From contig JANPJR010000030.1 of the NCBI GenBank assembly GCA_031425615.1, positions 146,492 through 210,491 on the forward strand: a stretch of DNA of 64,000 bases, read 5' to 3'. The position numbers and the translations under genes were made by a program. Position 1 is the stretch's first letter. The number at the start of each line of letters is the position of its first letter. The notes beneath the pieces are model-generated. The model saw only the letters and a list, made by a program, of their open reading frames with translations, did no database searches and had not been told where the DNA came from. Below are positions 996 to 58,315 of this stretch, one piece after another. The DNA comes from Cytophagales bacterium. GTDB lineage: Bacteria > Bacteroidota > Bacteroidia > Cytophagales > Microscillaceae.

Positions 996-1016
996 AAGCC
1001 ACTAACCCCAAAGGGG
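996..1016 (+). repeat. REP-like hairpin element (GCCACTAACCCCAAAGGGG)
   Basis: Member of a dispersed family built around a CCCC-AAA-GGGG hairpin core. Lies between the sensor gene start and the lipoprotein gene stop. Confidence 0.6.
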
Positions 1017-1052
1017 AATGATAGCCTTAAATCTTATTTTTTATTGATATGA

Positions 1053-1073
1053 TGCCTTTGGGGCTGAGGCATT
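1053..1073 (-). repeat. REP-like element, inverted copy (TGCCTTTGGGGCTGAGGCA). Likely the terminator of the downstream lipoprotein gene.
   Basis: Inverted partner of the 996-1016 copy. Hairpin ATGCC-N-GGCAT immediately 3' of the CDS ending at 1074. Confidence 0.5.
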
Positions 1074-1613
1074 TTATTTCTTCTCCTCTTTTTTCACTTC
1101 TACTGTTACCACATCAAGGAAAGTTTTGTGTTTGTCTTCAAAATCTCTGTGTTTTTGTTGGTTTTTTTTGTGAATTTCCAAAAGGTTTTTGTGGTGTTCT
1201 GCCATTGTTTCATGTGCTTTTTCAAAATCTTTATCTATGAGTTTGCCTTCTGCATGATTTTTTACAAGCGAAGTGTGTTCTTGTAAGAGTTTATCGTGTC
1301 CTTTGATGAGGTCAGCGTGTTCTTTCAACACTTTATTTTGGGCAATTATAGCCTCGTCATGCATTTTGATTTCGTTAGATTGTTGGTCTTTTACGCCTGC
1401 CTTTTTCGTTTGAAATTCTTTATCCCACTGTACATATTCTTGGTACATTACATCATGTTCTTGTAGAATAATTTGGTGTTCTTTGATAAATTTTTGGTGT
1501 TCTATTTCCAATTTTTTATTAAGTTCCATATTGTTGGCGACACCACTTCCGCAACTTGCTGTGATGGCTACAAAAAGTAGAAATAAAAGGGATTTGATGG
1601 TAGTTTTAAGCAT
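1074..1613 (-). CDS. Histidine-rich coiled-coil lipoprotein with repeated KEH/EHxxL motifs. Paralog of 57779-58285.
   Basis: Signal peptide plus lipobox (ITASC). Low-complexity K/E/H-rich helical repeats (EHQKFIKEHQIILQEHD..., LKEHADLIKGHDKLLQEHTSL). Composition and motifs match the second copy at 57779. Confidence 0.7.
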   Translation of the reverse strand: MLKTTIKSLLFLLFVAITASCGSGVANNMELNKKLEIEHQKFIKEHQIILQEHDVMYQEYVQWDKEFQTKKAGVKDQQSNEIKMHDEAIIAQNKVLKEHADLIKGHDKLLQEHTSLVKNHAEGKLIDKDFEKAHETMAEHHKNLLEIHKKNQQKHRDFEDKHKTFLDVVTVEVKKEEKK

Positions 1614-1634
1614 AGAAAATGCGTTTTTAGGATT

Positions 1635-1675
1635 ATTATTGTTAATTGTTAATTGTTAATTGTTAATTGTTATTT
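1635..1675 (+). repeat. Tandem 7-mer array (TAATTGT x5)
   Basis: ttgttaattgttaattgttaattgttaattgtta, seen directly just upstream of the lipoprotein start. Confidence 0.8.
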
Positions 1676-1752
1676 GAAAAAGTGTAAAAATAGGTTATAA
1701 TTTTATTTAATTTTCAATTTTACTTAATTTTTTGCACTAATTTTTTATTTTT

Positions 1753-1950
1753 GGTACTCTGACAATTTTAGTGGAGTTTCAAAGCTTCAAAAAAGCGGAA
1801 AAATATGCAATATTTTTAGCAAAATAAATTCCACTTTATAAAATTTTATATTGTAATAAAAATATTTTTAAAATAATATTTCGTAAAACATTTAAGGTTT
1901 TAAAAACCTTGAATGTTTTTCCAGATTCCCACTAAAATTGTCTGAGTACC
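1753..1950. mobile_element. 152-bp segment flanked by 23-bp inverted repeats (GGTACTCTGACAATTTTAGTGGA / TCCCACTAAAATTGTCTGAGTACC). Candidate invertible promoter switch or MITE.
   Basis: IR-L is 1753-1775 and IR-R is 1928-1950 (21 of 23 bp complementary). The spacer holds an internal 13-bp imperfect hairpin (aacatttaaggtt...aaccttgaatgtt) and AT-rich promoter-like sequence. Located about 140 bp upstream of the lipoprotein gene start at 1613. Confidence 0.5.
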
Positions 1951-2107
1951 TTATTTTTTCCATTTTAAAACAAAAATAAGCTGAAGTATAAGCAAATATT
2001 AAGTTTATCAAATATGATAAATGATAGCCAATATGTCTGTACAATTTTATTTATGTGATTTTATCAAAATTTTGTTGTATTTTTGTTAAAAAATAATGTA
2101 ACTATTT

Positions 2108-2130
2108 AGCCCCCTAACCCCCAAAGGGGG
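2108..2130 (+). repeat. REP-like hairpin element (TAGCCCCCTAACCCCCAAAGGGGG)
   Basis: Family consensus. CCCCC-AAA-GGGGG hairpin. Confidence 0.6.
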
Positions 2131-2378
2131 AATTAACAACAATAAAGCGTTTTTTGTAACACAGACTTTTAGTCTGTGCGTTCTAAACAATATTTTTAAA
2201 TGTAAGCTAAACAGATACAAAATAAATACTAAAATGCAAATGTTTAACCGCAAAATAAAGCAAAATTCTTTGCAAAACACATATAAAAACAATAAACTTG
2301 TTTTGATTTTATGTGTAAAATAAACAAAAAACACCAGATTTTAACATTTTCAAGTAAATTCATAAGGATAGACGACTT

Positions 2379-2403
2379 AAAACAGCGAAACTGACAACGT
2401 AGG
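2379..2403 (+). repeat. AACTGACAAC motif (intergenic word family)
   Basis: aaacagcgaaactgacaacgtagg, upstream of the 2444 gene. Confidence 0.4.
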
Positions 2404-2443
2404 TTTTTATAAGCCATAATGTATCCTCTATCATTAAAAACCT

Positions 2444-3727: not shown

Positions 3728-3931
3728 AAAATTATTTTAAATCTTTGTTTATTTTTATAAAAACAAAGAAAATTCTTCTTTTGGGAAAATATTTTCACTT
3801 TTGGATTTTTCTTTAATTTTAATATGTATAAAATATTGATAATCAATATTTTAATAATTGGCATAAAATTTGATTATATTATATATGTGAGATTAAAACT
3901 TAATGCATAGCTAGTTGAAGAAAAACTAAAA

Positions 3932-3966
3932 AAACCTTTCCTTATTAGGGAAAGGCTTTTTTTTGT
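3932..3966. terminator. Bidirectional rho-independent terminator (cctttcc-ttatta-ggaaagg plus T-run)
   Basis: Stem-loop followed by T8. Sits between the convergent genes 2444-3727 (+) and 4052-4945 (-). Confidence 0.7.
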
Positions 3967-4025
3967 CTTTTATTTTAGTAAATTATTGTTAATGCTGATA
4001 TTGTGCATTTGGGAACTGGCAATTC

Positions 4026-4047
4026 AAAAAACTGACAACTGACAACC
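4026..4047 (+). repeat. AACTGACAACTGACAAC tandem motif
   Basis: aaaaaactgacaactgacaacc, abutting the stop of the minus-strand LytTR gene. Confidence 0.6.
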
Positions 4048-4051
4048 TATG

Positions 4052-4891: not shown

Positions 4892-5518
4892 GGTTGTTGT
4901 TTTGTTTATTAAAAAAAATAACAAAAATATGTTTGAAATTACCACAAAAATTATAAACTAAAAAATTATGCTAAAATTAACTTAGCAAAAAATTTCCTTT
5001 CCTATTTCCAAAAAAAACCAGTTGCCCACAAATAGAAATTCTAGAGATTTCCCCAAAAATGAAAATTGGTTTTCCCATTTTGGTTTTATTATCCCGCTAA
5101 AACCTACAAACATAAAAAAACCTCCCGATTCCAACATGCAACTCATTTTTAATCTGCTTACTACTACACAAAAGTATGATTTTTTCACTAAGAAATCAAC
5201 AAGCTAATTTTTTTAGCTATAAAAAAACCAATCACATTTTGAAATGAGAGAAATGATAATTTTACACAAATGATATTTTATTTATTTCCTGTTTCTTTGG
5301 GTGAATCAAAACCTATATGGAAAGAGGAAAAAGAAGCTTGGCAATCAAAGGAAAATAGACGAATAGAAATTGAGGTTTTTGAGTAGTATGAGCGTTTTTT
5401 TTTGCTATTACTTATTTACTATTACCCAAAACATCCTTTTTTTACATATTTATTGCTTTAAAAAAATAAAAAAACGTATTTTTGCATTTTTTTAACTTTC
5501 TAAATTGCCACAAAAAAC

Positions 5519-6040: not shown

Positions 6041-6062
6041 ATATCTGTTTCCAAACAAAAAA

Positions 6063-6094
6063 GCCACAATGATACAATTTCATTGTGGTTTTTT
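6063..6094 (+). terminator. Rho-independent terminator hairpin (gccacaatg-atacaattt-cattgtgg plus T-run)
   Basis: Seen directly. A near-identical copy sits at 7747-7780. Confidence 0.75.
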
Positions 6095-6124
6095 TCCAAA
6101 AAAATTTTTTAGCTATTTTCTTAT

Positions 6125-6185: not shown

Positions 6186-6220
6186 ATTTATTTTTTTACC
6201 AAAATACAATTTTAATCAAA

Positions 6221-6982
6221 ATGAGTAAATTACAAAATAAACTCGCAGTAATTACAGGTGGTAATAGTGGCATAGGGCTTGCTACTGCAAAGCTTTTTAT
6301 CCAAGAAGGTGCAAAAGTTATCATCACAGGCAGAAATCAAAAAAATGTTGATGAAGCTATAAAATTATTGGGTGACAATGCAGTAGGAATTTTGGCAGAT
6401 ACCGCTAATATTGCCCACACAGACAGTTTAGTAAAACAAATTAGTGAAAAATTTGGAAAAATTGATGTACTTTTTGTAAATGCTGGCATTGCCAAATTTG
6501 CACCTATTGACCAAACAACTGAAGCATTTTTTGATGAAACCATCAACATCAACCTCAAAGGTGCGTTTTTCACAAGCCAAAAATTTGTACCTATTTTGAA
6601 AGATGGTGCATCTATTATTTTTAATACAACCATTGCCTATCATGTAGGAATGCCCAATGCGAGTGTATATGCTGCGAGCAAAGCAGGTTTGTTGGCTTTT
6701 GCTAAGGTATTGGCTACCGAAGTATCTACAAGAGGTATTAGGGTAAATTCGGTAAGCCCAGGCCCTATTGCTACACCAATTTATAGCAAACTTGGTTTTC
6801 CGCAAGAAGCTATTGATGCTATGGGGTCTGCGCTTTCTGCAAAAACGCTTTTAGGACGTTTTGGAGAAGCAGAAGAAATCGCAAAAGTAGCTTTGTTTTT
6901 GGCAAGCAATGACAGTTCTTATATCACAGGGGCAGAAATCATAGCTGATGGCGGATTACTTTTAAATCCAACAGACAGGTAG
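6221..6982 (+). CDS. SDR-family NAD(P)-dependent oxidoreductase
   Basis: MSKLQNKLAVITGGNSGIGLATAK gives the TGxxxGIG Rossmann motif. YAASK is the catalytic YxxxK. Start moved to the in-frame ATG at 6221 (the track ORF starts at 6128 inside the operator region). Confidence 0.9.
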   Translation: MSKLQNKLAVITGGNSGIGLATAKLFIQEGAKVIITGRNQKNVDEAIKLLGDNAVGILADTANIAHTDSLVKQISEKFGKIDVLFVNAGIAKFAPIDQTTEAFFDETININLKGAFFTSQKFVPILKDGASIIFNTTIAYHVGMPNASVYAASKAGLLAFAKVLATEVSTRGIRVNSVSPGPIATPIYSKLGFPQEAIDAMGSALSAKTLLGRFGEAEEIAKVALFLASNDSSYITGAEIIADGGLLLNPTDR

Positions 6983-7107
6983 ATTTTTAGAGATTTTTTC
7001 CAAAAACTAAATACCTTTGCTTTCCGTTTTTGAAAGTGAAGGTATTTTTTTGTATTTTCAATTTTTCGCTTGATTTTCGTTTTTTAAAAACCAATTCCAA
7101 AATAATT

Positions 7108-7686: not shown

Positions 7687-7746
7687 AAAATTTGATTTAG
7701 TTTATGTTTTATATTTTTTCAATTTTCAAATAAAAAAGCCAAAAAA

Positions 7747-7780
7747 GCCACAATGATACAATTTCATTGTGGCTTTTTTA
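7747..7780 (+). terminator. Rho-independent terminator, duplicate of 6063-6094 (gccacaatgatacaatttcattgtggc plus T-run)
   Basis: Identical 27-nt hairpin sequence, seen directly. Confidence 0.75.
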
Positions 7781-10714: not shown

Positions 10715-10825
10715 GTCAACACTTAGAAGAAAATATTAACATTTCCATTTTCTTTGTTATTCATTTTCTTTATTATTATAGATTAGAATTATTTTTCTTT
10801 TGTTAAAAAAAACAGCTGATAAAAA

Positions 10826-10856
10826 GCAACTTGTCCAAAAGATAAGTTGCTTTTTT
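10826..10856. terminator. Rho-independent terminator (gcaactt-gtccaaaagat-aagttgc plus T6)
   Basis: Between the convergent RRM (+) and yidD (-) genes. Confidence 0.65.
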
Positions 10857-10861
10857 GATTT

Positions 10862-11644: not shown

Positions 11645-11777
11645 GATATTGTTGTTGTATCAATTTATTCAGTTTTTTGTTATCTGTTTATTTTTTGTTA
11701 CCTGTTTATCTATCTAAAACTCAATGGATTTTTTTAGCTCTTTGAATTTAACCTAAAAAAAAACAAAAATTATCCTT

Positions 11778-11828
11778 TTTGAACCTTGAACTTTTTGAAC
11801 CTTGAACTTTTAAACCTTGAACTTTCTA
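11778..11828 (+). repeat. TTGAACCTT-family tandem array (5-6 units) immediately 3' of the OmpA-family gene
   Basis: tttgaaccttgaactttttgaaccttgaacttttaaaccttgaactttc. Confidence 0.8.
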
Positions 11829-16502: not shown

Positions 16503-16554
16503 CGTTCTAACCTCATAAAGGGAGTTAATAAAAAAACAATTAAATACTATTTGC

Positions 16555-16577
16555 TCCTCTTTGGGGGCTGGGGCTTT
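16555..16577 (-). repeat. REP-like element, inverted copy (CCTCTTTGGGGGCTGGGGCT), with a degenerate partner at about 16508-16524
   Basis: Between convergent murF/alr (+) and the ABC ATPase gene (-). Overlaps the ABC gene stop. Confidence 0.55.
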
Positions 16578-18258
16578 AATCCTCCAAAACTGCCCCAAGC
16601 AGTCTTTGGGTATATTCATGCATTGGATTTGCATAGATGGCGTTTTTTTCGCCATATTCCACCAAAATACCATTTTCTAAAATGGCGATTTTATCTGCCA
16701 AAAATTTTATTACTGCTAAATCATGCGAAATAAAAAGCATCGTCAAAGACAATTCTTTTTGCAAATCTTTCAAAAGATTTAAAATTTGGGCTTGAATAGA
16801 CACATCAAGCGAAGCAGTGCTTTCATCAGCCACCAAAATCTTAGGCGAAAAAGCCAATGCCCTTGCAATATTCAACCTTTGGCGTTGCCCCCCAGAAAGT
16901 TGGTGCGGAAATCTGTCTTGATAACTCGCAGGTAATTGCACAAGATTCAGCAATTCATGAAGGCGTGCTTGAACTTGATTTTTTTGCAAAATTGGGTGTA
17001 TATAAAAAGGCTCTGCAAGTATTTCGCCTATTTTCATTTTGGGATTGAGCGAAGCAAAAGCATCTTGAAATACCATTTGTACGCTTTGGGTATAATATTT
17101 GGCTTCGGTTGTGTTAAATTTTTGGATATTTTTATTTTCAAATAAAATTTCGCCTTTTGTGGGTTTTTCCAATCGCAAAATCAATCGTCCAATCGTACTT
17201 TTACCACTGCCAGATTCGCCTACAAGCCCCAATGTTTCACCAGCCAAAAGACTTACATTGATATTTGTAAGTATGTTTTTTATAGTATTATTGTATTTAA
17301 AATCAAGGTTTTGGATTTTTAGGATTTCATTTTTTACTTCTTGTTCTTTGAGTTTGTTACTTTTTATTTCTTTAATTCTTGGTAAAAAAACTTTTTGATT
17401 TTCATTTTCCCAAAAATCCTCTACTGTGGGAAGTGGTTGATTATCAGGTGTTTTGAGGGTAGGTTTGCACGCCAAAAGTCCTTTAGTGTAGGCATGTTGT
17501 GGATTTTTTAAAATGTTTTCGGTGGTATTTTCTTCCAATTTTTCGCCACGATACATCACCAAAACCCTTTGTGCAATATAATTAACTACGCTCCAATCAT
17601 GCGAAACAAATAAAAGACTTGTTTGAAATTCTTTTTGCAATTTTTTTAATAAATCCAAAATTTCCTTTTGTACTGTAACATCTAAAGCAGTTGTTGGTTC
17701 ATCAGCAATCAACAATTTTGGGTTGCCTGCGAGTGCAATGGCTATCACAAAACGCTGTTTTTGCCCGCCAGAAAGTTGATGTGGATAGCTTTGATATTTT
17801 TTTTCAACCTCTGTCATTTGCATTTTTTCCAATAATTGAAGGGTATATTTTTTGGCTTCTTTTTGGCTAAAATGTGGGTGATGTAAGCGTACAGCTTCTT
17901 CTACTTGATAACCACACGTAAAAACAGGATTAAGGGCAGACATTGGTTCTTGGAAAATCATGCCTATTTCTTTGCCTCTGAGCAGTTTTTTTTGTTTTTC
18001 GGGCAAATTTAATAAATCTACTTTGCCAAATTGCGTAGAAGAAAACCAAATATTTCCTGACACTTCACACGCAGGCAAAAGCCCCAAAATAGCCAATGCA
18101 GTCAAGGATTTTCCCGAACCTGATTCGCCCACAATACCCAAACTTTCGCCTTCTGAAAGTGTATAATTGATGTTTTGCAGTGTAAAGGGTTTAGTTTTAG
18201 GATTGGTTTCTTCCTTTTTTTTTTTGAATTGCAAGGAAAAATTTTCAAGCGAAAGCAT
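16576..18258 (-). CDS. ABC transporter ATP-binding protein with two tandem ATPase domains (peptide/nickel-type YejF/GsiA-like)
   Basis: Two Walker A sites (GESGSGKS twice). Two signature motifs (LSGGQKQR, LSGGQRQR). Walker B/D-loops present. Confidence 0.9.
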   Translation of the reverse strand: MLSLENFSLQFKKKKEETNPKTKPFTLQNINYTLSEGESLGIVGESGSGKSLTALAILGLLPACEVSGNIWFSSTQFGKVDLLNLPEKQKKLLRGKEIGMIFQEPMSALNPVFTCGYQVEEAVRLHHPHFSQKEAKKYTLQLLEKMQMTEVEKKYQSYPHQLSGGQKQRFVIAIALAGNPKLLIADEPTTALDVTVQKEILDLLKKLQKEFQTSLLFVSHDWSVVNYIAQRVLVMYRGEKLEENTTENILKNPQHAYTKGLLACKPTLKTPDNQPLPTVEDFWENENQKVFLPRIKEIKSNKLKEQEVKNEILKIQNLDFKYNNTIKNILTNINVSLLAGETLGLVGESGSGKSTIGRLILRLEKPTKGEILFENKNIQKFNTTEAKYYTQSVQMVFQDAFASLNPKMKIGEILAEPFYIHPILQKNQVQARLHELLNLVQLPASYQDRFPHQLSGGQRQRLNIARALAFSPKILVADESTASLDVSIQAQILNLLKDLQKELSLTMLFISHDLAVIKFLADKIAILENGILVEYGEKNAIYANPMHEYTQRLLGAVLED

Positions 18259-18265
18259 AAAAAGA

Positions 18266-18290
18266 TTATGAATTATGAATTATGGATTTT
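18266..18290 (+). repeat. ATTATGAATTATGGATT tandem motif
   Basis: gattatgaattatgaattatggatt, just upstream of the ABC gene start. Confidence 0.6.
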
Positions 18291-20404: not shown

Positions 20405-20425
20405 TAGCCCCTAAACCCAAAGGGG
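20405..20425 (+). repeat. REP-like element (TAGCCCCTAAACCCAAAGGGG). Probable gmd terminator.
   Basis: Immediately 3' of the gmd stop. Forms an inverted pair with 20563-20586. Confidence 0.6.
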
Positions 20426-20562
20426 AAAAAATACAAAAAAGTATTTGGATTAAAGTCTGTTTTTTGGGGAGATAAAGACAAAAAATTATAAAAAAAACAT
20501 TTTTATAATTTAAATAAATACAAAAATAATACATAATTTAAATAAAAATCCTAAAAAATAAT

Positions 20563-20586
20563 TCCCTCTTTGGGGTCAGGGGCTTA
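20563..20586 (-). repeat. REP-like element, inverted copy (TCCCTCTTTGGGGTCAGGGGCTT), abutting the fcl start codon
   Basis: Reverse complement matches the family consensus. Ends at the fcl ATG. Confidence 0.6.
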
Positions 20587-23113: not shown

Positions 23114-23114
23114 T

Positions 23115-23146
23115 TTAAGTTTTCAGTTATTAGTTTTCAGTTTTTT
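23115..23146 (-). repeat. AACTGAAAACT motif array, inverted orientation (agttttcagttattagttttcagtttttt)
   Basis: Immediately 3' of the parA stop. Confidence 0.55.
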
Positions 23147-25558: not shown

Positions 25559-25562
25559 AGTA

Positions 25563-25600
25563 AAAGCGTAAAAAAGTTTATTTTTTTACGCTTTTAATTT
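25563..25600 (+). terminator. Rho-independent terminator (agcgtaaaaaa...ttttttacgct plus T-run)
   Basis: Seen directly, downstream of glnN. Confidence 0.7.
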
Positions 25601-27605: not shown

Positions 27606-28160
27606 TTATTTGCTTTTTATCATTTCAGGCGTAATTTTTTCAAAAGTAAAAATTTCTTTACCTTTTTTCTGTGTTTGCCATTTTTTTGCACTTTCCTCTG
27701 AATCAGTTACTAAAAAATCATTCACATTCATTGGATTTTTTTCGTTTGTGCCTTTCACAAAAAAGGCTTTTTTTGCTTCTACGGTTTTATTTTCCCCAAA
27801 TACACTAAAAGTTACATATTCGCCAGTGCTGTACTCTTTTTCAGACAAAGAGGCAGAAAAATAACATTTTGGAGAACAAAAAAATGTTGTTTCTTTTTGT
27901 GGTGGTGCATATTTTACACGCCAATTTGTTTGGTCGGAAGGCATACCACAGCTCTTGCAATCTTTTACAAGCGTTTCTACATTGGTTTTTTCTGTTTTGT
28001 CGTGGCTGTGTCCATCATGATTATGTCCATCATGGTTGTGTGCGCTGTGGTCATGCCCTTTGTGGTCGTAGTCATCATGATTTTTGGTTTCTGATTGACA
28101 ACTTATTGCCAAAACACTTATCCAAATAAATGTTGCGGAGATTAAAAGAAAATTTTTCAT
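27606..28160 (-). CDS. Histidine-rich metal-binding lipoprotein with a TRASH/YHS-like C-x2-C...C-x3-C domain
   Basis: Lipobox (LAISC). His/Asp-rich tract HDDYDHKGHDHSAHNHDGHNHDGHSHD. CKSCGM-x23-CSPKC matches the TRASH/YHS metal-binding spacing. Start placed at MKNFLL (the ORF track begins at 28193). Confidence 0.65.
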   Translation of the reverse strand: MKNFLLISATFIWISVLAISCQSETKNHDDYDHKGHDHSAHNHDGHNHDGHSHDKTEKTNVETLVKDCKSCGMPSDQTNWRVKYAPPQKETTFFCSPKCYFSASLSEKEYSTGEYVTFSVFGENKTVEAKKAFFVKGTNEKNPMNVNDFLVTDSEESAKKWQTQKKGKEIFTFEKITPEMIKSK

Positions 28161-28176: not shown

Positions 28177-28200
28177 AAGCCCCCTAAACCCAAAGGGGGG
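28177..28200 (+). repeat. REP-like element (AAGCCCCCTAAACCCAAAGGGGGG)
   Basis: About 17 bp upstream of the lipoprotein start. Paired with the inverted copy at 28287-28310. Confidence 0.6.
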
Positions 28201-28286
28201 ATTTTAGTTAGAGATTTAAAATTTGGATTTAATTTTTGTGAATACTAAAATAAGTATTAAAATTCCTTTGGAATTAGGAGTATTAA

Positions 28287-28310
28287 TTCCCCTTTGGGGT
28301 CAGTGGGCTT
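28287..28310 (-). repeat. REP-like element, inverted copy (TTCCCCTTTGGGGTCAGTGGGCTT)
   Basis: Immediately 3' of the CBS-domain gene stop. Confidence 0.6.
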
Positions 28311-28311: not shown

Positions 28312-28977
28312 TTAAATATAATATTTAAACAACATATCAAGTCTATCTTTTTCCAATGCTTGTTGTGCTTCATCATCTTGGTATTTGCCAATGATTTGAT
28401 AGTTGTGTCGTTCAAAAGTTTGGACAATGCGTGAAAGATTTGTCGTATTGATTTTGATGGTAACTTTTATTTGTTGTGTATTTACTTTGTCGTCAGTAAT
28501 GTGCATATTAAGAATTTTTGCATCATTTTCTTCTACATAGCGACTTATTTCGGTGAGCGAATAATCTCTTTTACGCATCAAAAACTCCAACACACCGCCA
28601 GGTTCTTGTATACTGCTTGATTCAGATATAACTTTGATAGCGTCATTGAGCGTAACCACGCCCAAAAAATGGTCTTGTTCGTCCAATACTGCCAAAACTT
28701 GGATATTTTGTTGTTTGGAAAGTTTCAATATTTCAAAAAAATATTGATGTGTGTGCACAAAAGTATCTTCATAAAGAATTTCTAATGTATCAACGCTTGC
28801 ATTTTCGTCGTTGCAATCATACAAAGCACTTTCCAATATAAGCCCTTTGTACTGCAAATCTGCTACAAGAGGCAATTGGCTTACACGAAATTCCTCCATC
28901 CATTGGATTGCTTTTTTTACCGTGTCGGTAGGTTTCAAAGGCGGAATAACCTGATTAATAAGTTCAATGGCTATCAT
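28312..28977 (-). CDS. CBS-domain pair protein
   Basis: Two CBS-like modules (..VSQLPLVAD.., ..LGVVTLNDAIKVI..). Confidence 0.75.
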   Translation of the reverse strand: MIAIELINQVIPPLKPTDTVKKAIQWMEEFRVSQLPLVADLQYKGLILESALYDCNDENASVDTLEILYEDTFVHTHQYFFEILKLSKQQNIQVLAVLDEQDHFLGVVTLNDAIKVISESSSIQEPGGVLEFLMRKRDYSLTEISRYVEENDAKILNMHITDDKVNTQQIKVTIKINTTNLSRIVQTFERHNYQIIGKYQDDEAQQALEKDRLDMLFKYYI

Positions 28978-29108: not shown

Positions 29109-29197
29109 AAAACTGAACCAACTGATTACTAAAAAAATTAATTACTGAACTAATTAATTACTGAACTAACTGATTACTGAAAAAACTGGCAACTTGT
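29109..29197 (+). repeat. (AATTA)CTGAAC(TAA) degenerate tandem array (~9 units)
   Basis: aaactgaaccaactgattactaaaaaaattaattactgaactaattaattactgaactaactgattactgaaaaaactggcaacttg. Confidence 0.7.
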
Positions 29198-30066: not shown

Positions 30067-30300
30067 GAGGCTATCATACTCTGATAATTTTAGCATTACT
30101 AAACCTATAATGTTTTTTAAAACCTTATAAGTTTTGAAACACTTATTTTAAATAATATGTTAAATTATAATTTAATTTTAAAAAAAACACTTAAAGATTA
30201 AAAAATAAATAAATTTTATATTTTTTTGTAACAAAAATATTGAAATAAAAACCTCCAATAAAATTGTCAGCGTACCAAGTCTATTAAATCAGAATTTTTT

Positions 30301-30355
30301 TGAATTTTGAACCTTGAACCTTTTGAACCTTGAACCTTTTGAACTTTGAACCTTA
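30301..30355 (+). repeat. TTGAACCTT-family tandem array (6 units) immediately 3' of cvpA
   Basis: tgaattttgaaccttgaaccttttgaaccttgaaccttttgaactttgaacctta. Confidence 0.8.
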
Positions 30356-30871
30356 ATCTATAAAATCTCGTATCATTTTGGATAATTCGTCTTCATCTTT
30401 TACACCTGTGAGAATGTATGCTACTGTTTCTACTAATTTATACATAAAAGATTTTTTTTGTAACTCATTATGAAATTCACCAAGCCCAGTCATAAACCAA
30501 AATATAAAACTCAATACCACAATATTACGCAAAATACCAAAAAATGCGCCTAAATAGTTGTCCCATTGTCCAGGAAATTCATAATCTATTTCAGATTTTA
30601 GATATTGCCCTAATGTATGGACAAGTTGCACAGCGGTAAGCACTGACACCGCAAAAACAAGTTCAGGATAGATGGTTTGATTAAATTTGAACATGTGCGT
30701 TGACATTAGATTGAACAATACTGAACAAAGTTTGAAGCACACCAAAAATGACAACACAAAATGCAAAAGCTTGACAACTTCTTGCAAAATGCCTTCTCTA
30801 TACCCAATATATGCACCCCAACCAATCGTGGAGGCTATCAATAAATCCAATACAATGCCTGGTATGTTCAA
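30353..30871 (-). CDS. cvpA: CvpA-family membrane protein (colicin V production protein-like)
   Basis: Four-TM CvpA architecture. The start codon is apparently TTG and overlaps an inverted TTGAACCTT-family array. Confidence 0.8.
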   Translation of the reverse strand: MNIPGIVLDLLIASTIGWGAYIGYREGILQEVVKLLHFVLSFLVCFKLCSVLFNLMSTHMFKFNQTIYPELVFAVSVLTAVQLVHTLGQYLKSEIDYEFPGQWDNYLGAFFGILRNIVVLSFIFWFMTGLGEFHNELQKKSFMYKLVETVAYILTGVKDEDELSKMIRDFID

Positions 30872-30906
30872 AGTTTAAGGTTCAAAAAGTTTAAGGTTTA
30901 AAAAAA
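30866..30906 (-). repeat. TTGAACCTT-family array in inverted orientation (aaagtttaaggttcaaaaagtttaaggtttaaa), overlapping the cvpA start
   Basis: Seen directly. In cvpA orientation it reads TTTAAACCTTAAACTTTTTGAACCTTAAACTTTGAAC-AT. Confidence 0.7.
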
Positions 30907-31206: not shown

Positions 31207-31254
31207 AAAAGTTTAAGATTTAAAAACTTTGAACCTTAAACTTTGAACCTTAAA
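31207..31254. repeat. TTGAACCTT-family array with mixed orientation, abutting the GatB/YqeY gene stop
   Basis: aaagtttaagatttaaaaactttgaaccttaaactttgaaccttaaacgg. Confidence 0.7.
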
Positions 31255-31260
31255 CGGATA

Positions 31261-36260: not shown

Positions 36261-36292
36261 ATTGTTTTAGCAATATTTTTATATTTTTTTAA

Positions 36293-36348
36293 ATAGCTTA
36301 CAAATTATTTTTTTTGTGAAAAATAATTTGTAAGCTATTTTTTTTCCC
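36293..36348 (+). terminator. Strong rho-independent terminator (18-bp stem agcttacaaattattttt / aaaaataatttgtaagct plus T8)
   Basis: Seen directly, downstream of the di-haem enzyme gene. Confidence 0.75.
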
Positions 36349-37491: not shown

Positions 37492-37530
37492 AATTTGGAT
37501 TATAGATTATGAATTATAGATTATTAAAAA
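37491..37530 (+). repeat. ATTATAGATTATGAATTATAGATTATT motif array immediately 3' of the HesB-like gene
   Basis: aaatttggattatagattatgaattatagattattaaaaa. Confidence 0.6.
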
Positions 37531-37633: not shown

Positions 37634-37658
37634 CTCCCCCTTTGGGGGTTGGGGGGCT
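37634..37658 (-). repeat. REP-like element, inverted copy (TCCCCCTTTGGGGGTTGGGGGGCTT), about 5 bp upstream of the recG ATG
   Basis: Family consensus. The track's alternative start for recG lies inside it. Confidence 0.6.
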
Positions 37659-39775: not shown

Positions 39776-39798
39776 TAGCCCCCTACCCCCCAAAGGGG
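39776..39798 (+). repeat. REP-like element (TAGCCCCCTACCCCCCAAAGGGG). Probable recG terminator.
   Basis: 16 bp after the recG stop. Confidence 0.6.
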
Positions 39799-39811
39799 AA
39801 CTAAAGGCATT

Positions 39812-41040: not shown

Positions 41041-42069
41041 TTATTCTTTATCCTCTGTTTCCTCTTTGGGGGTTAAGGGGCTTTCTTTGGGGTTTAGAGG
41101 GCGGTCTTTAATAAGTTGTTCAAAAGAGTCCAAATACTGCCTAAGTTCTGCAATAGCATCAAGGCTTTGTTCTTCTAAAGAAGTACGCAAGCAATTTTTG
41201 ATACTTTTGGCAAGACCTTTTAACTGTTTTTCGTTGGGAATAAATGGCGTTTGGAGAATGGTTTTTTCGTTTTTTCGTTCATTTCTTTCAAGCATGGTCA
41301 TATCAAAACGTTGTTCTCTGCGAATAACCTCCTCAACTTCTTTAATTCTTTTGCCCAATTCGCCCATATCTTTGATATAATCTTTTCTGCCTTCATCTTC
41401 CAACCAATCTATGATTTTAGTGCGTGAAATAGGCAATTCGCCTTGTAGAATATGCCAGCGAAATGTCTCATCTTCGCCTGTAAGTTTATTAAGCCCTAAG
41501 AAATATTTTTCATCTCGTTGAATTGTTTTTACAGATACTTTGTGCATTGTAGCAAGATATTCAAGTGGTGTAAGTTTCTTTTCTTTTGGATTTTCGGTAT
41601 TATTTGTATTATGTTGATTGGTGCCTACTTGATTTTTTTCTCTTGCATATTGCATACCTCTGAGGTAAGATTTTGTTTCTTCTGTAATATTTCTTTTGCC
41701 AAATTGATTGCTCAACATCCAATCTTTTGCTTGGTTGATATTACCAAATTGCAAAATTACAAAATTAAAATCAAGTTCATGTTTGGTACAAATACCAAAA
41801 CGATTATGTCCATCAATTAATACATAATTATCACCTTCTTGCCAAAGCACAAGAGGGTCTCTACAACCTTCTTTTAAAATATTTTCCTCTAATTTTTCAT
41901 GTTCAATATGTGTAAGTGGCGGTATAAGGCTACGCAATTCTTCATTAATTTGTATATGTTTTTTGATATATTCATGAGATGCTTGGGCTTGTTTTTGCAA
42001 TTCTGCTTTTTGCCTTTCGCCTACGCTTATCAAACCACTCAAATTGGTAAAGGTGTCTTTTTTTCCCAT
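41041..42069 (-). CDS. ParB/Sulfiredoxin-superfamily N-terminal domain protein (ParB-like nuclease domain plus an uncharacterised helical C-domain)
   Basis: ...DPLVLWQEGDNYVLIDGHNRF... matches the ParB N-domain/Srx core. The C-terminal ~20 aa (PLNPKESPLTPKEETEDKE) are encoded by two tandem REP-like elements. Confidence 0.65.
   Translation of the reverse strand: MGKKDTFTNLSGLISVGERQKAELQKQAQASHEYIKKHIQINEELRSLIPPLTHIEHEKLEENILKEGCRDPLVLWQEGDNYVLIDGHNRFGICTKHELDFNFVILQFGNINQAKDWMLSNQFGKRNITEETKSYLRGMQYAREKNQVGTNQHNTNNTENPKEKKLTPLEYLATMHKVSVKTIQRDEKYFLGLNKLTGEDETFRWHILQGELPISRTKIIDWLEDEGRKDYIKDMGELGKRIKEVEEVIRREQRFDMTMLERNERKNEKTILQTPFIPNEKQLKGLAKSIKNCLRTSLEEQSLDAIAELRQYLDSFEQLIKDRPLNPKESPLTPKEETEDKE
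41061..41104 (-). repeat. Two tandem REP-like elements inside the 3' end of the ParB-like CDS (CCTCTTTGGGGGTTAAGGGGCTT plus TCTTTGGGGTTTAGAGGGCGG)
   Basis: Seen directly. Family consensus in inverted orientation. Confidence 0.6.
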
Positions 42070-45265: not shown

Positions 45266-45286
45266 GTCCCCTAACCCCCAAAGGGA
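45266..45286 (+). repeat. REP-like element (AGTCCCCTAACCCCCAAAGGG)
   Basis: Between the gpmI stop and the ARH start. Confidence 0.55.
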
Positions 45287-45338
45287 ACTTGAACATGGTT
45301 TTTTTAATGATTGGGGGAGAATAAAAAACTATAATTGC

Positions 45339-53713: not shown

Positions 53714-53832
53714 AAATAATATATTTTTGGTTAGGGTAATAAATAGGTCTTAATGGATAAATTTTAAGAGAACGCATAGACTAAGAGCTTGTGTTACACA
53801 AATACACAAAAAAGCTTTCATTGTTATCAATT

Positions 53833-53850
53833 CTCCTTTTGGGGGTTAAG
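53833..53850 (-). repeat. REP-like element, partial inverted copy (CTCCTTTTGGGGGTTAAG)
   Basis: About 20 bp 3' of the amidohydrolase gene stop. Confidence 0.45.
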
Positions 53851-53868
53851 TAATTACAAAATTCCTTA

Positions 53869-55203
53869 TTATTTTTGGTATTTCTTTTTATATCTTTGGT
53901 AAAGTTCTTTGTGTTTGTCGTTAAGGTCTAATTTTTTACCTCTTACAAAAGCATGTGTAACATTGTTTGTACGCATATCCAAAATATCGCCTTTTGACAC
54001 CACCAATGTAGCGTGTTTGCCTACTTCAAGCGTTCCAACTTTATCTGCAATACCCAAAATTTTGGCAGTATTGGCGGTTACAGTCATTAATGCATCTTCT
54101 TTGCTCAATCCATAAGCTGAGGCAGTACCTGCCAAAAAAGGCAAATTGCGTGTCCCCATTGGCTCTACATCATTCTCGTCATACGCCAATCCCACCAAAA
54201 TACCTGCTTGTTTGAGCAAATAAGGCAGTTTGTAAGGAAGCCAAACATCTTCCTCTGGGCGATAGGGCAATCTATGCAAACGTCCAAGTATAATCGGAAT
54301 ATTATTTGTTTTCAAAAATTCTGCAATTTGCAAAGCATCTTCACCACCTACAATCACAATTTTTTTTACTTCATGTTTTTTGGCAAATTGCACACTTTCA
54401 ATAATATCTTTGGAATAACTTGCATTGATAAACAAGGTTTTTGAGCCATCAAATAAACCACGCATCGCCTCCATTTTGAGGTTTTTGGGTGTATTTTCTT
54501 TATTTAAAAAATAAATTTTTGCATCAGTAAAAAATTTATCCAATGAAGAAATTATTTCCTGATATTTTTCATTTTTTTCTGCCCTACCTGATGGCGAAAA
54601 AAAACCGCCTCTTTGATACATAGACACCCAATTGAGGTGCAAACCCATATCTGCTTTGTGTTGAGCATCTTCCCAATTCCAACCTTCCAATTCCATTACG
54701 GAAGAAGTACCTGAAATAAGTCCACCTTTTGGCGTGCTTTGCACCAATAAAATACCATTGCTACGCAATGTAGGTGATATTTCGGAATCAGTATTAAAAG
54801 CCACAAGCGACCTTGCATTTGGGTTAAACAAACCTGTTTCTGCATAATCGTGTGTAGGGCGTAAACTTGCTACTTCAGTAATGCCCAACGCAGTTGCAGG
54901 CAAAATCAAAGATGGATAAATATGTTGCCCTTGTAGGTCTATTTCTTCTGCATTCGCAGGGTTTATGGTGTTACCAATTTCGGTAATAATACCATTTTCA
55001 AAGCGAATAGACGCATTATTTAATACTTCTCCTGTTGCTTTGTGGATAATTGCATTTTTCAAAACAATGGCTTTGATTTGTGCAGGAGCAGGAATTGGTT
55101 GTTGAGCTTGTACAAAAAAACACAAACCAAAAAACGCAATAAATAATAAACCAAATGATAATTGGGTTGTTTTCAACATATTTTTTGTAAAAATTATATT
55201 CAT
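53869..55203 (-). CDS. Amidohydrolase-family protein (secreted)
   Basis: Signal peptide. The amidohydrolase fold pattern (..HIYPSLI..., metal-binding His/Asp near the C-terminus ...HATLVVSKGDILD...). Confidence 0.8.
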   Translation of the reverse strand: MNIIFTKNMLKTTQLSFGLLFIAFFGLCFFVQAQQPIPAPAQIKAIVLKNAIIHKATGEVLNNASIRFENGIITEIGNTINPANAEEIDLQGQHIYPSLILPATALGITEVASLRPTHDYAETGLFNPNARSLVAFNTDSEISPTLRSNGILLVQSTPKGGLISGTSSVMELEGWNWEDAQHKADMGLHLNWVSMYQRGGFFSPSGRAEKNEKYQEIISSLDKFFTDAKIYFLNKENTPKNLKMEAMRGLFDGSKTLFINASYSKDIIESVQFAKKHEVKKIVIVGGEDALQIAEFLKTNNIPIILGRLHRLPYRPEEDVWLPYKLPYLLKQAGILVGLAYDENDVEPMGTRNLPFLAGTASAYGLSKEDALMTVTANTAKILGIADKVGTLEVGKHATLVVSKGDILDMRTNNVTHAFVRGKKLDLNDKHKELYQRYKKKYQK

Positions 55204-55239
55204 AAACTACACTTTAATAAAAGTTTGTTGTTTTTTTTT

Positions 55240-56064
55240 TCAATTTTTTAATGAATGGATTTGTTCTTTCTTTGGTTGTTGGGCTACTACATCTAATTCT
55301 TGTTTAATAATTTGTTCAAGGTTTTTAGCCAAATCTTCCAATACTATACTTTTGGGTTCAACAGGAGGCAATAATATCAATTCACATTTAATTCCAAAAG
55401 GAATAGGAAATAATCCAAAACGCACAATTTGCCAAGAATTGCGTATCACAACAGGCAATATAAGTGCAGAAGGCATATTTTGCACAAGTTGTTGTACGCC
55501 TGATTCTTTAAACACACGCAAATTACCATCTTTTGCCCTTGAACCTTCTGGAAATATTACCGCAGACCTTGTATATTGCTCACAATATTTACCCAAATCT
55601 GCAATCGCTTTCAGCGATTGTATTTTGTCTTTTCGGTCAATCAACGCATTTCCACCATATTTTAAGTGGTAAGATATGCTTGGAATATTTTTAGCCAATT
55701 CTTTTTTCGCTACAAATTTTGGCTCATTTTTTCGTAAAGTCCACAAAATAAAAGGGATATCAAACATACTTTGGTGATTGCTCACAATAATAAGGGGGCG
55801 TGTATTTGTCAGTTGTATTCCCATTTTATTGGTAACTTTCAGCGAAAGCCCAGTTATTCTTAATAATGTAATTAATACCCATTGCAAATCATGTATTACC
55901 CTAAGATGTGCATAATATCCACCAGCATTGAGGGCTATCATTTGAAAAAGATGATAAAAAACTAATGCTAATATAAAAAACGGAATAAAAATTAGCGTTG
56001 TTATCCAAGATAAAATTTTTTTCATGTGAAATTTTAAGTTAAAAAAATTACCCCAATTTTGCAT
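55240..56064 (-). CDS. 1-acyl-sn-glycerol-3-phosphate acyltransferase (PlsC/LPLAT family)
   Basis: The HxxxxD acyltransferase motif (SNHQSMFD) and FPEGSR motif III. Confidence 0.85.
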   Translation of the reverse strand: MQNWGNFFNLKFHMKKILSWITTLIFIPFFILALVFYHLFQMIALNAGGYYAHLRVIHDLQWVLITLLRITGLSLKVTNKMGIQLTNTRPLIIVSNHQSMFDIPFILWTLRKNEPKFVAKKELAKNIPSISYHLKYGGNALIDRKDKIQSLKAIADLGKYCEQYTRSAVIFPEGSRAKDGNLRVFKESGVQQLVQNMPSALILPVVIRNSWQIVRFGLFPIPFGIKCELILLPPVEPKSIVLEDLAKNLEQIIKQELDVVAQQPKKEQIHSLKN

Positions 56065-56088
56065 TTTTCAGCATGTTGGGGCTGTTTT

Positions 56089-57045
56089 CTATTGTTTTCT
56101 TGCGATAGCTTTAAGTGCTTTTTCTACGATATTTTCAGCAGTAAGACCATATTTTGTCATGAGTTCGCTTGGCACACCACTTTCCCCAAAAGAATCATTT
56201 ACACCCACCATTTCAAGTGGTGCAGGCAATTGTGTAGCCAATACTTGTGCAATACTTTCACCCAATCCGCCAGCAAGTTGATGTTCTTCTGCACTTACTG
56301 CACATTTAGTTTTTTTGACAGATGCAATAATTGCCTCTTTATCAAGCGGTTTTATGGTGTGGATATTGATAATTTCAGCAGAAATACCTTTTTGCTCCAA
56401 TATTTCGCAGGCTTTGAGTGCTTCCCAAACGAGATGCCCTGTGGCAAAAATACTTACATCAGTCCCTTCATTTAATAAGAGTGCTTTTCCAATAATGAAA
56501 GGCAAATTATCAGGGATAAAAATAGGGAGTTTTGGACGACCAAAACGCAGATAAACTGCTCCTTGATAATCAGCGATGGCTATCGTAGCGTGTTTAGTTT
56601 GGTTATAATCACATGGATTGATAACAGTCATATTTGGCAACATTTTCATCATGCCCATATCCTCCAAAATCTGGTGCGTTGCTCCATCTTCGCCCAATGT
56701 GAGTCCAGCGTGAGAAGCGCATATTTTTACATTTTTGTTGGAATATGCAATAGATTGGCGAATTTGGTCATAAACCCTACCTGTGGAAAAATTGGCAAAA
56801 GTGCCTGTAAAAGGAATTTTCCCCCCAATAGCAAGCCCAGATGCAATGCCCATCATATTTGCTTCTGCAATGCCAACCTGAAAAAATCTCTCAGGAAATT
56901 CTTTTGCAAAAGCGTCCATTTTTAATGAACCCGTCAAATCTGCACAAAGTGCTACCACATTTGGATTTTTCTTTGCAATCTCCAACAAACCAACCCCAAA
57001 ACCCGACCTTGTGTCTTGATTGCCTAAAATTTCGTATTTTTTCAT
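56089..57045 (-). CDS. Transketolase, C-terminal subunit (pyrimidine-binding plus C-terminal domains). No adjacent N-terminal subunit.
   Basis: [26 protein letters not shown]...[15 protein letters not shown]...[16 protein letters not shown] is the canonical split-Tkt C-subunit. Confidence 0.92.
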
Positions 57046-57778
57046 GGAATATTTATCCTTTTTTCAAATAATGCGTATATACAAATAATGTTTTAACAGA
57101 GTTTTATTTTTTATTTGTCTAAATTTTTATACAATTTATATCATATCTTTTGATACAAATTTATATGTCTTTTTATTTTAATATTTTTTTGGCAAATATA
57201 AGGTTATAATTCTATTTTTGAAAGTTTTGTGAAATTTTATGTTTTAAGATATTTTATTTCCAAATATAACTAAAAAAATTGACTTTAAAACTGTTTTCAA
57301 AACTGACTTTTTGACAGTATTTTATTTTCTATTTTTAAACTTTTAAACTTCTTTTACTGAATTAATGGCAATAACCATTTATTTATTTGCAAAAAACCGA
57401 AATATATGGCAATAAACAATATAATATTTTGTCAAACTATTGTCTATAAGGATATTAAATCACTAAAAATAAATTAAAGGAAATATTAAAATATTTTTAC
57501 GTATCAAAATAAAAAAAATATGACAAAACACAATGAATATAGGTTACTTTTATGTAAATTTTTATCATAAATGGTAGTTTTATTTTTCGTGTAAATAAAA
57601 AAAGGTTATATTTGCATGTATTTTTTTCTTACTTTAATAAAAAAAACGTAAATTCCCTTAAAAAACTTACAATAAAATTCAAAATGGCTACATTTTTGAA
57701 TAATCCTTTTTAAATAATTTTTTAACAATTAAAAAACAATCCGAATTTTTTACATAAAACATCTTTTTATTTTTACCT

Positions 57779-58285
57779 ATGAAAAAAATTGTATTTTCTA
57801 TCATCGCATTACTTGCATTCTGTATGGTTGCTTGCAATGCTACTTCTGACAACAGCAAAGAACTTGCAAAACTTCAAGAAGAACATGACACTTGGCACAA
57901 AGAACATGACGTTTGGACAAAAGAACATGAAGAAATGGAAGCGTCTTACAAAAAAACTGACGAAGCTTTCCGCAAACTTGTAAAAGATACCAACAGCGAA
58001 GCATACAAAGAATATGCTGAAATTGCAAAAGAACACGATGCAAATTCAGAATTTCACAGTGGTATGATGCAAAATCATAGCAATTTGCTTGATGAACACA
58101 CAAAAGCAGTGGAAGAATACAAAAAAACAACTGACGAAAAAGCAAAAAAAGAATTTGAAGAAAGACACAAAAAAATGCTTGACGAACACAAAAAAGGTGG
58201 AGAAGAGCATAATAAAATGAAACAAAAACAGATGGATTTTGACAAAAAACAAAAAGCTATTCTTGCTAAAGTAGAGAAAAAATAA
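57779..58285 (+). CDS. Histidine-rich coiled-coil lipoprotein, paralog of 1074-1613
   Basis: Lipobox (MVAC). KEHD / EHxxW / DEHTK repeats. Composition and length match the first copy. A 730-bp AT-rich leader region lies upstream. Confidence 0.7.
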   Translation: MKKIVFSIIALLAFCMVACNATSDNSKELAKLQEEHDTWHKEHDVWTKEHEEMEASYKKTDEAFRKLVKDTNSEAYKEYAEIAKEHDANSEFHSGMMQNHSNLLDEHTKAVEEYKKTTDEKAKKEFEERHKKMLDEHKKGGEEHNKMKQKQMDFDKKQKAILAKVEKK

Positions 58286-58294
58286 TTTCTTATT

Positions 58295-58315
58295 TAGCCC
58301 CCTAAACCCAAAGGG
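58295..58315 (+). repeat. REP-like element (TAGCCCCCTAAACCCAAAGGG). Probable terminator.
   Basis: 9 bp after the lipoprotein stop. Confidence 0.6.

Follow-up and report, generated by a model that had tools for sequence, protein, structure and literature searches.

The closest described system to the repeat analyzed here is the BoxC element of Escherichia coli, which is the same as the PIT element (Hoyne et al. 2000) and the TM-ECO intrastrand triplex motif (Holder et al. 2015, PMC4666352). Triplex motifs are defined by a pyrimidine block, a complementary purine block and a mirror third block, G-rich motifs being class II and C-rich motifs class IV; ITxF requires a block length of 6 or more and Hoyne et al. 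one above 7, the loops being 1-6 nt long (PMC4666352). TM-ECO copies share the consensus CCCTCNCCC-N3-6-GGGNGAGGG-N3-GGGNGAGGG and come in types A (second loop TTA) and B (CCG), whose inverted pairs are always A+B; they are intergenic and extremely conserved, their copy number is very unequal between close relatives, and local deletions and rearrangements are seen (PMC4666352). The triplex has been shown on the isolated single strand, in vivo footprinting detected none, no promoter or terminator activity was found for TM-ECO/PIT, RNA reportedly does not form the purine motif, and Bacteroidetes are not mentioned by name (PMC4666352). Here we describe a short GC-rich repeat of this three-block design in a 64,000-nt stretch of Bacteroidota DNA (contig JANPJR010000030.1, positions 146,492 to 210,491; this whole stretch is referred to as the window).

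Repetitive extragenic palindromic (REP) sequences of Enterobacteria and Pseudomonas, together with the bacterial interspersed mosaic elements (BIMEs) and REP doublets (REPINs) that they build, offer a second comparison. Like the Bacteroidota element, they are short GC-rich palindromes at gene ends, occur as inverted doublets and in clusters of two unit types, lie in many cases within 15 nt of stop codons, and are gained and lost between relatives. A 5' tag (GT[AG]G or CGTC) at the hairpin base defines REPs (PMC3733652, PMC6006769). The Bacteroidota element has no GTAG/CGTC tag, its flank consensus being (T/A)(A/T)A-GCCCCC; its sequence is not lineage-specific, and its mirror block has no REP counterpart. 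GC-rich palindromic mini-elements that lie between genes, or in frame within them, in AT-rich genomes also include the Rickettsia palindromic elements, which are much longer than the Bacteroidota unit, and the mitochondrial GC clusters, which are organellar. To our knowledge, a mirror or triplex design has not been described for either.

The window comes from the chromosome of an uncultured Cytophagales bacterium (~32% G+C) and carries housekeeping genes such as gmd, fcl, recG, iPGM and infC. Its closest sequenced relative among the fetched loci is a metagenome-assembled genome (MAG; GCA_013297825.1, 'Cytophagales bacterium'), with 84-89% amino-acid identity over three genes. The repeat is a unit of ~24 nt with the consensus GCCCCC-TAA-CCCCC-AAA-GGGGG-AA. 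The strand reading GCCCCC...GGGGGAA is called the C-rich sense, and the G-rich strand 24-mer, as DNA, is TTCCCCCTTTGGGGGTTAGGGGGCT. An earlier, sequence-only reading of the window had proposed a dispersed family of hairpins present in both orientations, and this proposal is upheld: alignment finds a recognizable family member at 15/15 of its coordinates, on + and - strands, giving 14-15 copies per 64 kb and none in shuffled sequence. In dinucleotide-preserving shuffles the expectation is 0.08 for CCCNAAAGGGG (5 matches in the window) and 0.11 for GCCCCYTAAMCCC with at most one mismatch (8 matches), and the pattern GCCCCN{3,6}CCCAAAGRGG, which matches 8 times, does not occur in 100 shuffles. 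An edit-distance scan with GCCCCCTAACCCCCAAAGGGGGAA recovers 14 copies at 7 edits or fewer and none in 20 mononucleotide shuffles; the copy at 1053 is more degenerate than these 14, and the exact consensus unit occurs in the window only once (2109-2132). Nor is the family confined to the window, as the exact 23-mer returned at least 120 rows in a scan of species-representative genomes. A collection scan with a looser pattern was unusable, being dominated by GC-rich chance matches.

We consider the element to be a short Bacteroidota form of the BoxC/TM-type intrastrand triplex motif, with a probability of roughly 0.7 for architecture and family assignment together. The C-rich strand is organized as C5(6)-TAA-C5-(A/G)AA-G5 and the G-rich strand as C5-TTT-G5-TTA-G5. 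The CCCC-AAA-GGGG hairpin had been taken as the core of the repeat, but this view could not be sustained: folded with ViennaRNA, which counts Watson-Crick and wobble pairs only, a single unit (-10.7 kcal/mol, z about -1) does no better than shuffles, and the upstream GCCCCC-TAA block is conserved as strongly as the hairpin. An inverted pair, by comparison, folds at -51.4 kcal/mol (z = -6.3). The relationship of the outer block to the stem becomes legible in variants with mixed C/T stems, such as CCTCCCC-CGA-CCCCTCC-AAA-GGAGGGG, CCCCTCT-TAA-TCTCCCC-AAA-GGGGAGA and CCTTCCC-TAA-CCCTTCC-AAA-GGAAGGG, in which the 5' block reads as the 5' stem strand in mirror image and is neither its direct copy nor its complement. 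The genome loci provided 29 informative variant units, and in these the mirror is the better match 19 times and the direct copy once.

To guard against circularity, the collections were also searched with hairpin-only patterns and the flanks inspected afterwards. Among the 396 non-symmetric hairpins recovered, 119 have a perfect mirror copy upstream, placed 1-5 nt (mostly 3 nt) from the hairpin, and 2 have a perfect direct copy; counted by stem type the ratio is 16 to 2 (sign test, p = 7e-4). A control on the 3' flank of three stem types gave no mirror signal. Where a unit is one step off a perfect mirror, A replaces the expected T of the C-rich strand in 36/52 cases, a departure that gives T.AT in place of A.AT on the G-rich strand, both of which are allowed purine-motif triplets (definitions of PMC4666352). 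Since no replication-based duplication yields mirror symmetry, the symmetry must be selected; with an outer block that mirrors a stem strand, one strand on its own can form a hairpin and lay the third block in its major groove. An alternative hairpin, in which the first C block pairs with the G block, was ruled out in the variant families, where the tail mirrors the stem instead of copying it directly. Shine-Dalgarno-like AAAGGGGG, telomere-like repeats, G-quadruplex/i-motif structures and integron attC sites were dropped for lack of support or because the number of blocks is wrong.

The likeness to TM-ECO extends beyond block order. Both elements place a pyrimidine stem, a loop, a purine stem, a 3-nt loop and a mirror purine block on one strand, both use TTT and TTA loops, and both have two types that differ in the second loop and form A+B inverted pairs, although A+A pairs are also common in Bacteroidota. 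Both are dispersed, mostly intergenic and very conserved in sequence, with sharply uneven copy number in close relatives and local deletion or rearrangement at their sites, and in both the third block carries T or A opposite A-T pairs, in keeping with the triplet rules (G.GC; A.AT/T.AT). The differences are nonetheless clear. Bacteroidota blocks are 5-6 nt long against 9 in TM-ECO (5 nt in the main family, 6 in the B third block), so that the main family falls below the ITxF and Hoyne block lengths, with its 3 + 3 nt loops in range; related variant families with 7-9 nt stems are long enough. Main-family stems are pure C/G. The third blocks of Bacteroidota pairs face outward, whereas those of the MG1655 hrpB-mrcB pair face inward, toward the spacer, an arrangement that the listed coordinates of TM-ECO pair 7+8 imply as well (PMC4666352). 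Orientation and distance are tied to open reading frame (ORF) ends in Bacteroidota, a relation not reported for E. coli (PMC4666352), and there are in-frame copies within genes. The hosts also differ, being Bacteroidota rather than Proteobacteria or Cyanobacteria. The stem sequence departs from the TM-ECO consensus, and the element is therefore a different family of the same design.

The genome scan used one genome per species and the exact 23-mer GCCCCCTARCCCCCAAAGGGGGA, which was found at no fewer than 120 loci across many Bacteroidota orders and families. The matches listed include Flavobacterium, Bergeyella, Maribacter, Lutibacter, Salegentibacter, Marivirga, Lacihabitans, Lewinella/Saprospiraceae, Lentimicrobium, Prevotella, Bacteroidaceae, several Cytophagales MAGs and one 'Fibrobacter' MAG. 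The sequence is not specific to one genome, the identical 23-mer recurring across Bacteroidota. In 128 exact copies from 120 genome loci the unit spans ~24-27 nt; position -1 is A in 79% of copies and position +23 in 96%, and the flanks are not conserved. The distribution is patchy: no copy at 5 edits or fewer was found in the recG loci (~100 kb) of relatives whose RecG is 70-72% identical, nor in 466 kb around fcl from 80 metagenomic loci, compared with 11 per 64 kb in the window. Because the metagenome scan with Fcl yielded no close relative (best identity 76%), these loci were used only to give spacer lengths and as a negative control for density. BLAST searches of the annotated phage and plasmid collections found the element in no phage or plasmid of Bacteroidota, and a literature search by the repeat sequence turned up no report.

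The genome loci also reveal rules of arrangement. Where a long ORF lies upstream, its sense strand is mostly the C-rich one (46 cases in which the ORF ends at the unit and 22 in which it reads through), against 6 + 6 for the G-rich strand. The stop codon of the upstream ORF lies at -5 to -2 in 30 cases and is the internal TAR in 13, and in 18 copies the GGGGGC end precedes a long ORF, 1-7 nt ahead of its ATG, as at purE in several Flavobacterium species. Neighboring copies within 400 nt comprise 53 '+-' arrangements with the GCCCCC ends outward, no '-+' arrangement and 17 tandems; the spacers of pairs measure 11-100 nt and are mutually unrelated, and BIME-like clusters exist. Units fall into type A (T6/A23; second loop TAA/TAG) and type B (C6/G23; CAA/CAG), with near-perfect co-variation (147 A, 24 B, 26 other). 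There are many A+B pairs as well as common A+A pairs, and the third blocks face outward in all of them. An A-run precedes the B units (AAAA in 37%, three or more A in 75%), and the first loop is AAA in 160 copies and GAA in 32. In-ORF copies share a single frame in 20/21 cases, encoding (S/R/C/G)PL(T/A)PKGG, the frame also used by the two in-ORF copies of the window.

Orthologous sites provide a measure of constraint. In the pair between cvpA and an alpha/beta-hydrolase gene in two relatives, L330 and L331, the arms are identical at 47/48 positions and the spacer at 19/26, which is the neutral level; 27% of four-fold sites differ between these relatives (155/213 identical), and arm constraint is significant by Fisher's test both against the spacer (p = 0.002) and against four-fold sites (3e-5). 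Within the isoleucyl-tRNA synthetase (IleRS) gene, the 23-mer is 22/23 identical in three genera, with neighboring conserved codons differing at third positions; its sole change is the A/G polymorphism of the family and alters the amino acid. In ileS of Bergeyella, Confluentibacter and Flavobacterium (L123 ~6926-7010, L152, L177) we observe an in-frame inverted pair of ~90 nt, made of a C5-type and a CCCCTCC-type unit (SPLTPKGG...SPPLEGSGE), just upstream of the WTTTPWTL motif.

Conservation at the nucleotide level, both within coding sequence and at orthologous sites, could be expected if the unit were an uptake-signal-like or protein-recognition sequence, maintained through molecular drive, in the form of biased uptake or gene conversion, or by a conserved Bacteroidota binding protein, with structure being incidental. 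The preference for one frame in 20/21 in-ORF copies plus the two in the window, and the occurrence of the same 23-mer in many families, would also accord with such a role. It would not account for the strict polarity of pairs (53 to 0), nor for the patchiness that leaves 466 kb and ~100 kb of related loci with zero copies, and a fixed recognition sequence would not allow stem and tail letters to change together as they do in the variants. We know of no sequence-specific uptake in these bacteria, which counts further against a signal of that kind, and we regard this explanation as very improbable.

In addition to being constrained, the element turns over, with whole units or pairs appearing and disappearing between close relatives. 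Both recG copies of the window are absent in a relative whose RecG is 90% identical, where the site 5' of recG shows a clean 24-nt indel and no obvious target duplication. A pair between the hydrolase and CBS genes is present only in L331, having been gained there as a unit, and the pair downstream of the CBS gene (CBS-NosL) occurs only in the window, being absent at that site in two relatives at 83-84%; the latter site is a synteny breakpoint as well. No consistent target-site duplication was seen, a TA duplication being possible at one site. Miniature inverted-repeat transposable elements were rejected, as the spacers of different pairs share no homology and target duplication is inconsistent, and invertons were rejected on our own size argument that many spacers, at only 11-30 nt, are too short for recombinase-mediated inversion.

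This turnover bears directly on a classical REP/REPIN origin, under which the units would be hairpin substrates of a REP-associated tyrosine transposase (RAYT; HUH Y1) copied as inverted doublets and used by the host as mRNA stabilizers, terminators or, beside stop codons, ribosome-stalling sites. The predominance of inverted doublets (53 '+-' vs 0 '-+') with BIME-like clusters, the gain and loss between relatives with a clean 24-nt indel, and the gain of a pair as a unit in L331 are all in line with such an origin, and Bacteroidetes carry RAYT subclasses 2.4 and 2.6 (PMC6006769). The published REPs beside Bacteroidetes RAYT genes, however, are different, species-specific sequences unrelated to this element, and a single identical sequence across the phylum is unlike RAYT-REP co-evolution. 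The tag is missing, the mirror-image third block is not explained by a hairpin substrate, and one solo 24-nt indel is seen besides the gain of a pair. Copies bracket genes that are all ordinary housekeeping genes, and a crude regular-expression search detected no HUH/Y1-like ORF in the window or the fetched loci, a weak result given that RAYTs are single-copy. The REP/BIME likeness drawn by the sequence-only reading thus survives in dispersal, boundary placement and inverted pairs, but the mirror block and the missing tag fit BoxC/PIT/TM-ECO rather than REP proper, and we think a REP/REPIN origin unlikely.

Within the window, the GCCCCC end lies 1-29 nt from an ORF boundary in 12/15 copies, and at most 6 nt away in 7 of those; the adjoining boundary is the stop codon of a same-strand ORF or the start codon of an opposite-strand ORF. 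The earlier reading was right that the copies sit at gene boundaries; of the remaining three, two are tandem copies inside ORF 41041-42069 and one (2109) lies in a long intergenic region. Three inverted pairs had been recognized and are real, with both GCCCCC ends facing outward, toward ORFs; their start-to-start spacings are 57, 158 and 110 nt, the first of which is below the 75-180 bp that had been given. One pair was said to split the gmd-fcl operon, and it does occupy the 181-nt gmd-fcl spacer, which in 13/19 other loci of the same gene order measures -1 to 32 nt. The left arm of this pair (20407..20428, +) lies 2 nt past the gmd stop and the right arm (20562..20583, -) 2 nt ahead of the fcl ATG; between them is an AT-rich spacer of 133 nt (20429..20561), which is unique and has no homology to other spacers, and the long-range stem in the transcript is -48.4 kcal/mol. 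The CBS-NosL pair (-42.2 kcal/mol) has its distal arm (28179..28201, +) upstream of the NosL-like gene 27606-28160(-), 18 nt from the gene start, and its proximal arm (28287..28308, -) 3 nt past the stop of the CBS-domain gene 28312-28977(-). Downstream of gene 1074-1613(-), a degenerate distal arm GCCACTAACCCCAAAGGGGAA (998..1018, +; 4 edits) and a strongly degenerate proximal arm GCCTCAGCCCCAAAGGCA (1053..1071, -), 2 nt past the stop, fold at -24.3 kcal/mol, followed by UUUU.

These stems raise the possibility that the units are modular intrinsic terminators or attenuators, in which A arm, B arm and U-run are selected as an RNA hairpin with 3'-end protection and solos are decayed halves. The A-runs ahead of B arms give a U-run after the G-rich reading, the pairs are very stable, one is followed by UUUU, and about a quarter of apparent solos have a partner with strong complementarity within 160 nt. 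Reasoning from the sequences, reading from A to B needs only a G.U wobble where the other strand would have a C.A mismatch. On the other hand, the operon-internal gmd-fcl pair abuts the next ATG and has no U-tract, and solo A units also lack one. Ordinary A-run/stem/T-run terminators are present elsewhere in the window (7741-7779, 10821-10855, 25561-25596, 36292-36339 and 58440-58471), the last of them 120 nt downstream of the solo copy at 58297, and the solo copies are not this genome's terminators; the terminator role that had been noted for the E. coli elements does not apply to them. An RNA hairpin would permit compensatory drift, yet the arms are nearly invariant across the phylum; the mirror tail and the in-ORF IleRS copies would go unexplained, and PIT elements have no terminator activity in E. 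coli (PMC4666352). Termination or attenuation as the basis of the family is, in our estimation, decidedly unlikely, somewhat more so than a REP/REPIN origin.

Taken together, the element is most likely a mobile DNA repeat that is selected for its structure and whose pairs contribute hairpins to mRNAs. The G-rich DNA single strand would fold into a hairpin with the third block in the major groove, and the substitution pattern (T or A opposite A-T) fits a purine reverse-Hoogsteen motif on that strand. Any transcript of an inverted pair also forms a stem of ~24 bp. The element would spread as a non-autonomous unit or doublet; its copies settle beside stop and start codons, or in one tolerated frame within genes, and their sequence is then kept nearly invariant. 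Pairs at operon junctions may act as strong mRNA hairpins in attenuation, processing or 3'-end protection of the upstream cistron, pairs a few nucleotides past a stop codon may hinder terminating ribosomes, as has been reported for REPs so placed (PMC12306157), and element sites may be fragile or rearrangement-prone DNA. We infer that the triplex forms in the cell and that this non-autonomous repeat is selected for structure, with host effects that would be mainly local. Confidence in any particular cellular function is far below that in the family assignment. The sense-strand bias and the single reading frame point to added selection at the RNA and protein level.

Several considerations weigh against this interpretation. 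Five triplets are short, and by hairpin energetics a single unit is no better than shuffles. The E. coli relatives gave no triplex by in vivo footprinting and no promoter or terminator activity (PMC4666352). The strong sense-strand bias and the in-frame copies suggest selection on RNA or protein; as the purine motif reportedly does not form in RNA, two levels of selection must be invoked. Copies within a variant family share descent, and the support therefore comes from ~16 stem types, not 119 instances, with truly independent T positions fewer still. Finally, no mobilizing enzyme was identified by the crude HUH/Y1 search of the window and fetched loci, in which the bracketed genes are housekeeping genes. 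A stronger version of the triplex interpretation would take the three-way co-variation as evolutionary proof that an intrastrand triplex forms and matters in vivo, with the 24-mer as a minimal triplex module that a conserved host machine recognizes or resolves, candidates for which would be replication/repair or a mobilizing enzyme. We hold this version to be doubtful, although less so than any of the alternatives weighed above. If true, a host-recognized triplex module would explain the phylum-wide identity, the conservation within essential genes (ileS) and the precise docking at ORF boundaries.

Among the remaining window copies, the exact consensus GCCCCCTAACCCCCAAAGGGGGAA (2109..2132, +) is solo in the intergenic region 1613-2444, and between convergent genes, 1 nt past the stop codon that ends the ABC ATPase gene 16576-18258(-), there is a degenerate unit (16552..16574, -). 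A B-type unit GCCCCCCAACCCCCAAAGGGGGAG (37634..37657, -), with an A-run on its 5' side, lies 6 nt ahead of the recG ATG, and another unit (39778..39800, +) 17 nt past the recG stop. Inside the 3' end of ORF 41041-42069(-), a unit in the usual frame (41058..41081, -; SPLTPKEE) adjoins a truncated tandem unit without the G block (41082..41102, -; RPLNPKE). Together, positions 41058-41102 encode a C-terminal tail of ~20 aa, RPLNPKE-SPLTPKEE, that is absent from homologues, whose full-length alignments end at query residues 316-320. This ORF has a ParB-like motif, LIDGHNR, with no Pfam match at E <= 0.001, and has thousands of distant homologues of ~280-310 aa. The unit at 45266..45287 (+) lies between the iPGM stop (45357) and the start of an ADP-ribosylglycohydrolase gene (45236), 29 nt from the latter, and may have a decayed partner near 45313. 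A half-decayed unit that has lost its first block (53831..53854, -) follows the stop of the amidohydrolase gene 53869-55203(-) by 14 nt, and the solo unit at 58297..58318 (+) that of gene 57779-58285(+) by 11 nt, with the terminator at 58440-58471 next.

Other small repeats are present as well. A second repeat, CCACAATGA...TCATTGTGG with A- and T-runs, occurs twice in the window (6064-6088, 7741-7779) and resembles a bidirectional terminator that has been duplicated. Tandem AT-rich repeats with a period of 7 (or 14-16), e.g., TTGAACC, ATTGTTA and GATTATA, lie directly at ORF boundaries in the window (11775-11825, 30299-30354, 30870-30904, 31224-31255, 1638-1676, 18265-18288, 23114-23144, 37498-37524 and 29112-29188) and at other loci (L248 1-44, L330 7796-7820). 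Some arrays are inverted and bracket an intergenic region (yqeY-cvpA), and the heptamers often occupy ORF-boundary positions in relatives where GC-rich units sit in others. Rfam searches returned no family at gathering score in the window and 18 loci, and nothing meaningful around the gmd-fcl pair at E up to 10; a tRNA/tmRNA search found none. Flavo-1 RNA (RF01705) matches at two Flavobacterium loci (L122 6354-6421, L175 7930-8000) are unrelated to the element.

Further observations concern the family in other settings. A large sister family, AGCCTCCCC-NNN-CCCCTCC-RAA-GGAGGGG-AG, was found among viral_contigs loci L336-L454 (e.g., L352, L342, L387), on contigs of 36-51% G+C with sometimes six copies per 10 kb; 77/122 unique instances have a perfect mirror tail. 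Upstream of Flavobacterium purE, a conserved hairpin CCTAYTAGGGGTNARTAGG adjoins the purE-proximal unit (L122, L134, L143, L175, L183, L186, L192, L204, L205, L219, L232), with compensatory changes (CCTACT/AGTAGG, CCTATT/AATAGG, CCTGA/TCAGG), and could represent a structured leader or an additional module in a composite element. Lacihabitans sp. CCS-44 has an exact unit in its 23S-5S rRNA spacer, oriented in the same sense as the rRNA transcript (L147 1942-1964). In the cyanophage PaV-LD of Planktothrix, the replication-related gene ORF005R (L247 1501-1528) has the near-copy AGACCCCCTAACCCCCAAAGGGGGAAC in frame (DPLTPKGGT), so the unit or a convergent copy is also present beyond Bacteroidota. 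Matches in lambda-like O/replication genes of enterobacterial and Stenotrophomonas phages (H3-H9) are CCCCCAAAGGGGGA-type origin iterons and were judged to be look-alikes, not relatives.

For the biology of these genomes, the first consequence is one of naming, the REP label being best replaced by 'BoxC/TM-type intrastrand triplex motif, short Bacteroidota form'. In annotation, the units distort ORF calls through spurious N-terminal extensions and C-terminal tails such as PLTPKGG, and could pass for terminators or small RNAs in Bacteroidota; they also mark synteny breakpoints. With the E. coli motifs, only isolated single strands have shown the triplex, and no function was found (PMC4666352). 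The Bacteroidota family offers a non-circular comparative test of whether intrastrand triplexes form or matter in bacterial cells, in that hairpins found without reference to their flanks still display the mirror third block and follow the triplet rules. The elements are abundant, short and phylum-wide, with natural presence/absence alleles and in-gene copies, so that experiments should be straightforward. The main value of the family accordingly lies in comparative evidence on the in vivo relevance of intrastrand triplexes and in a convenient experimental system with which to pursue it.

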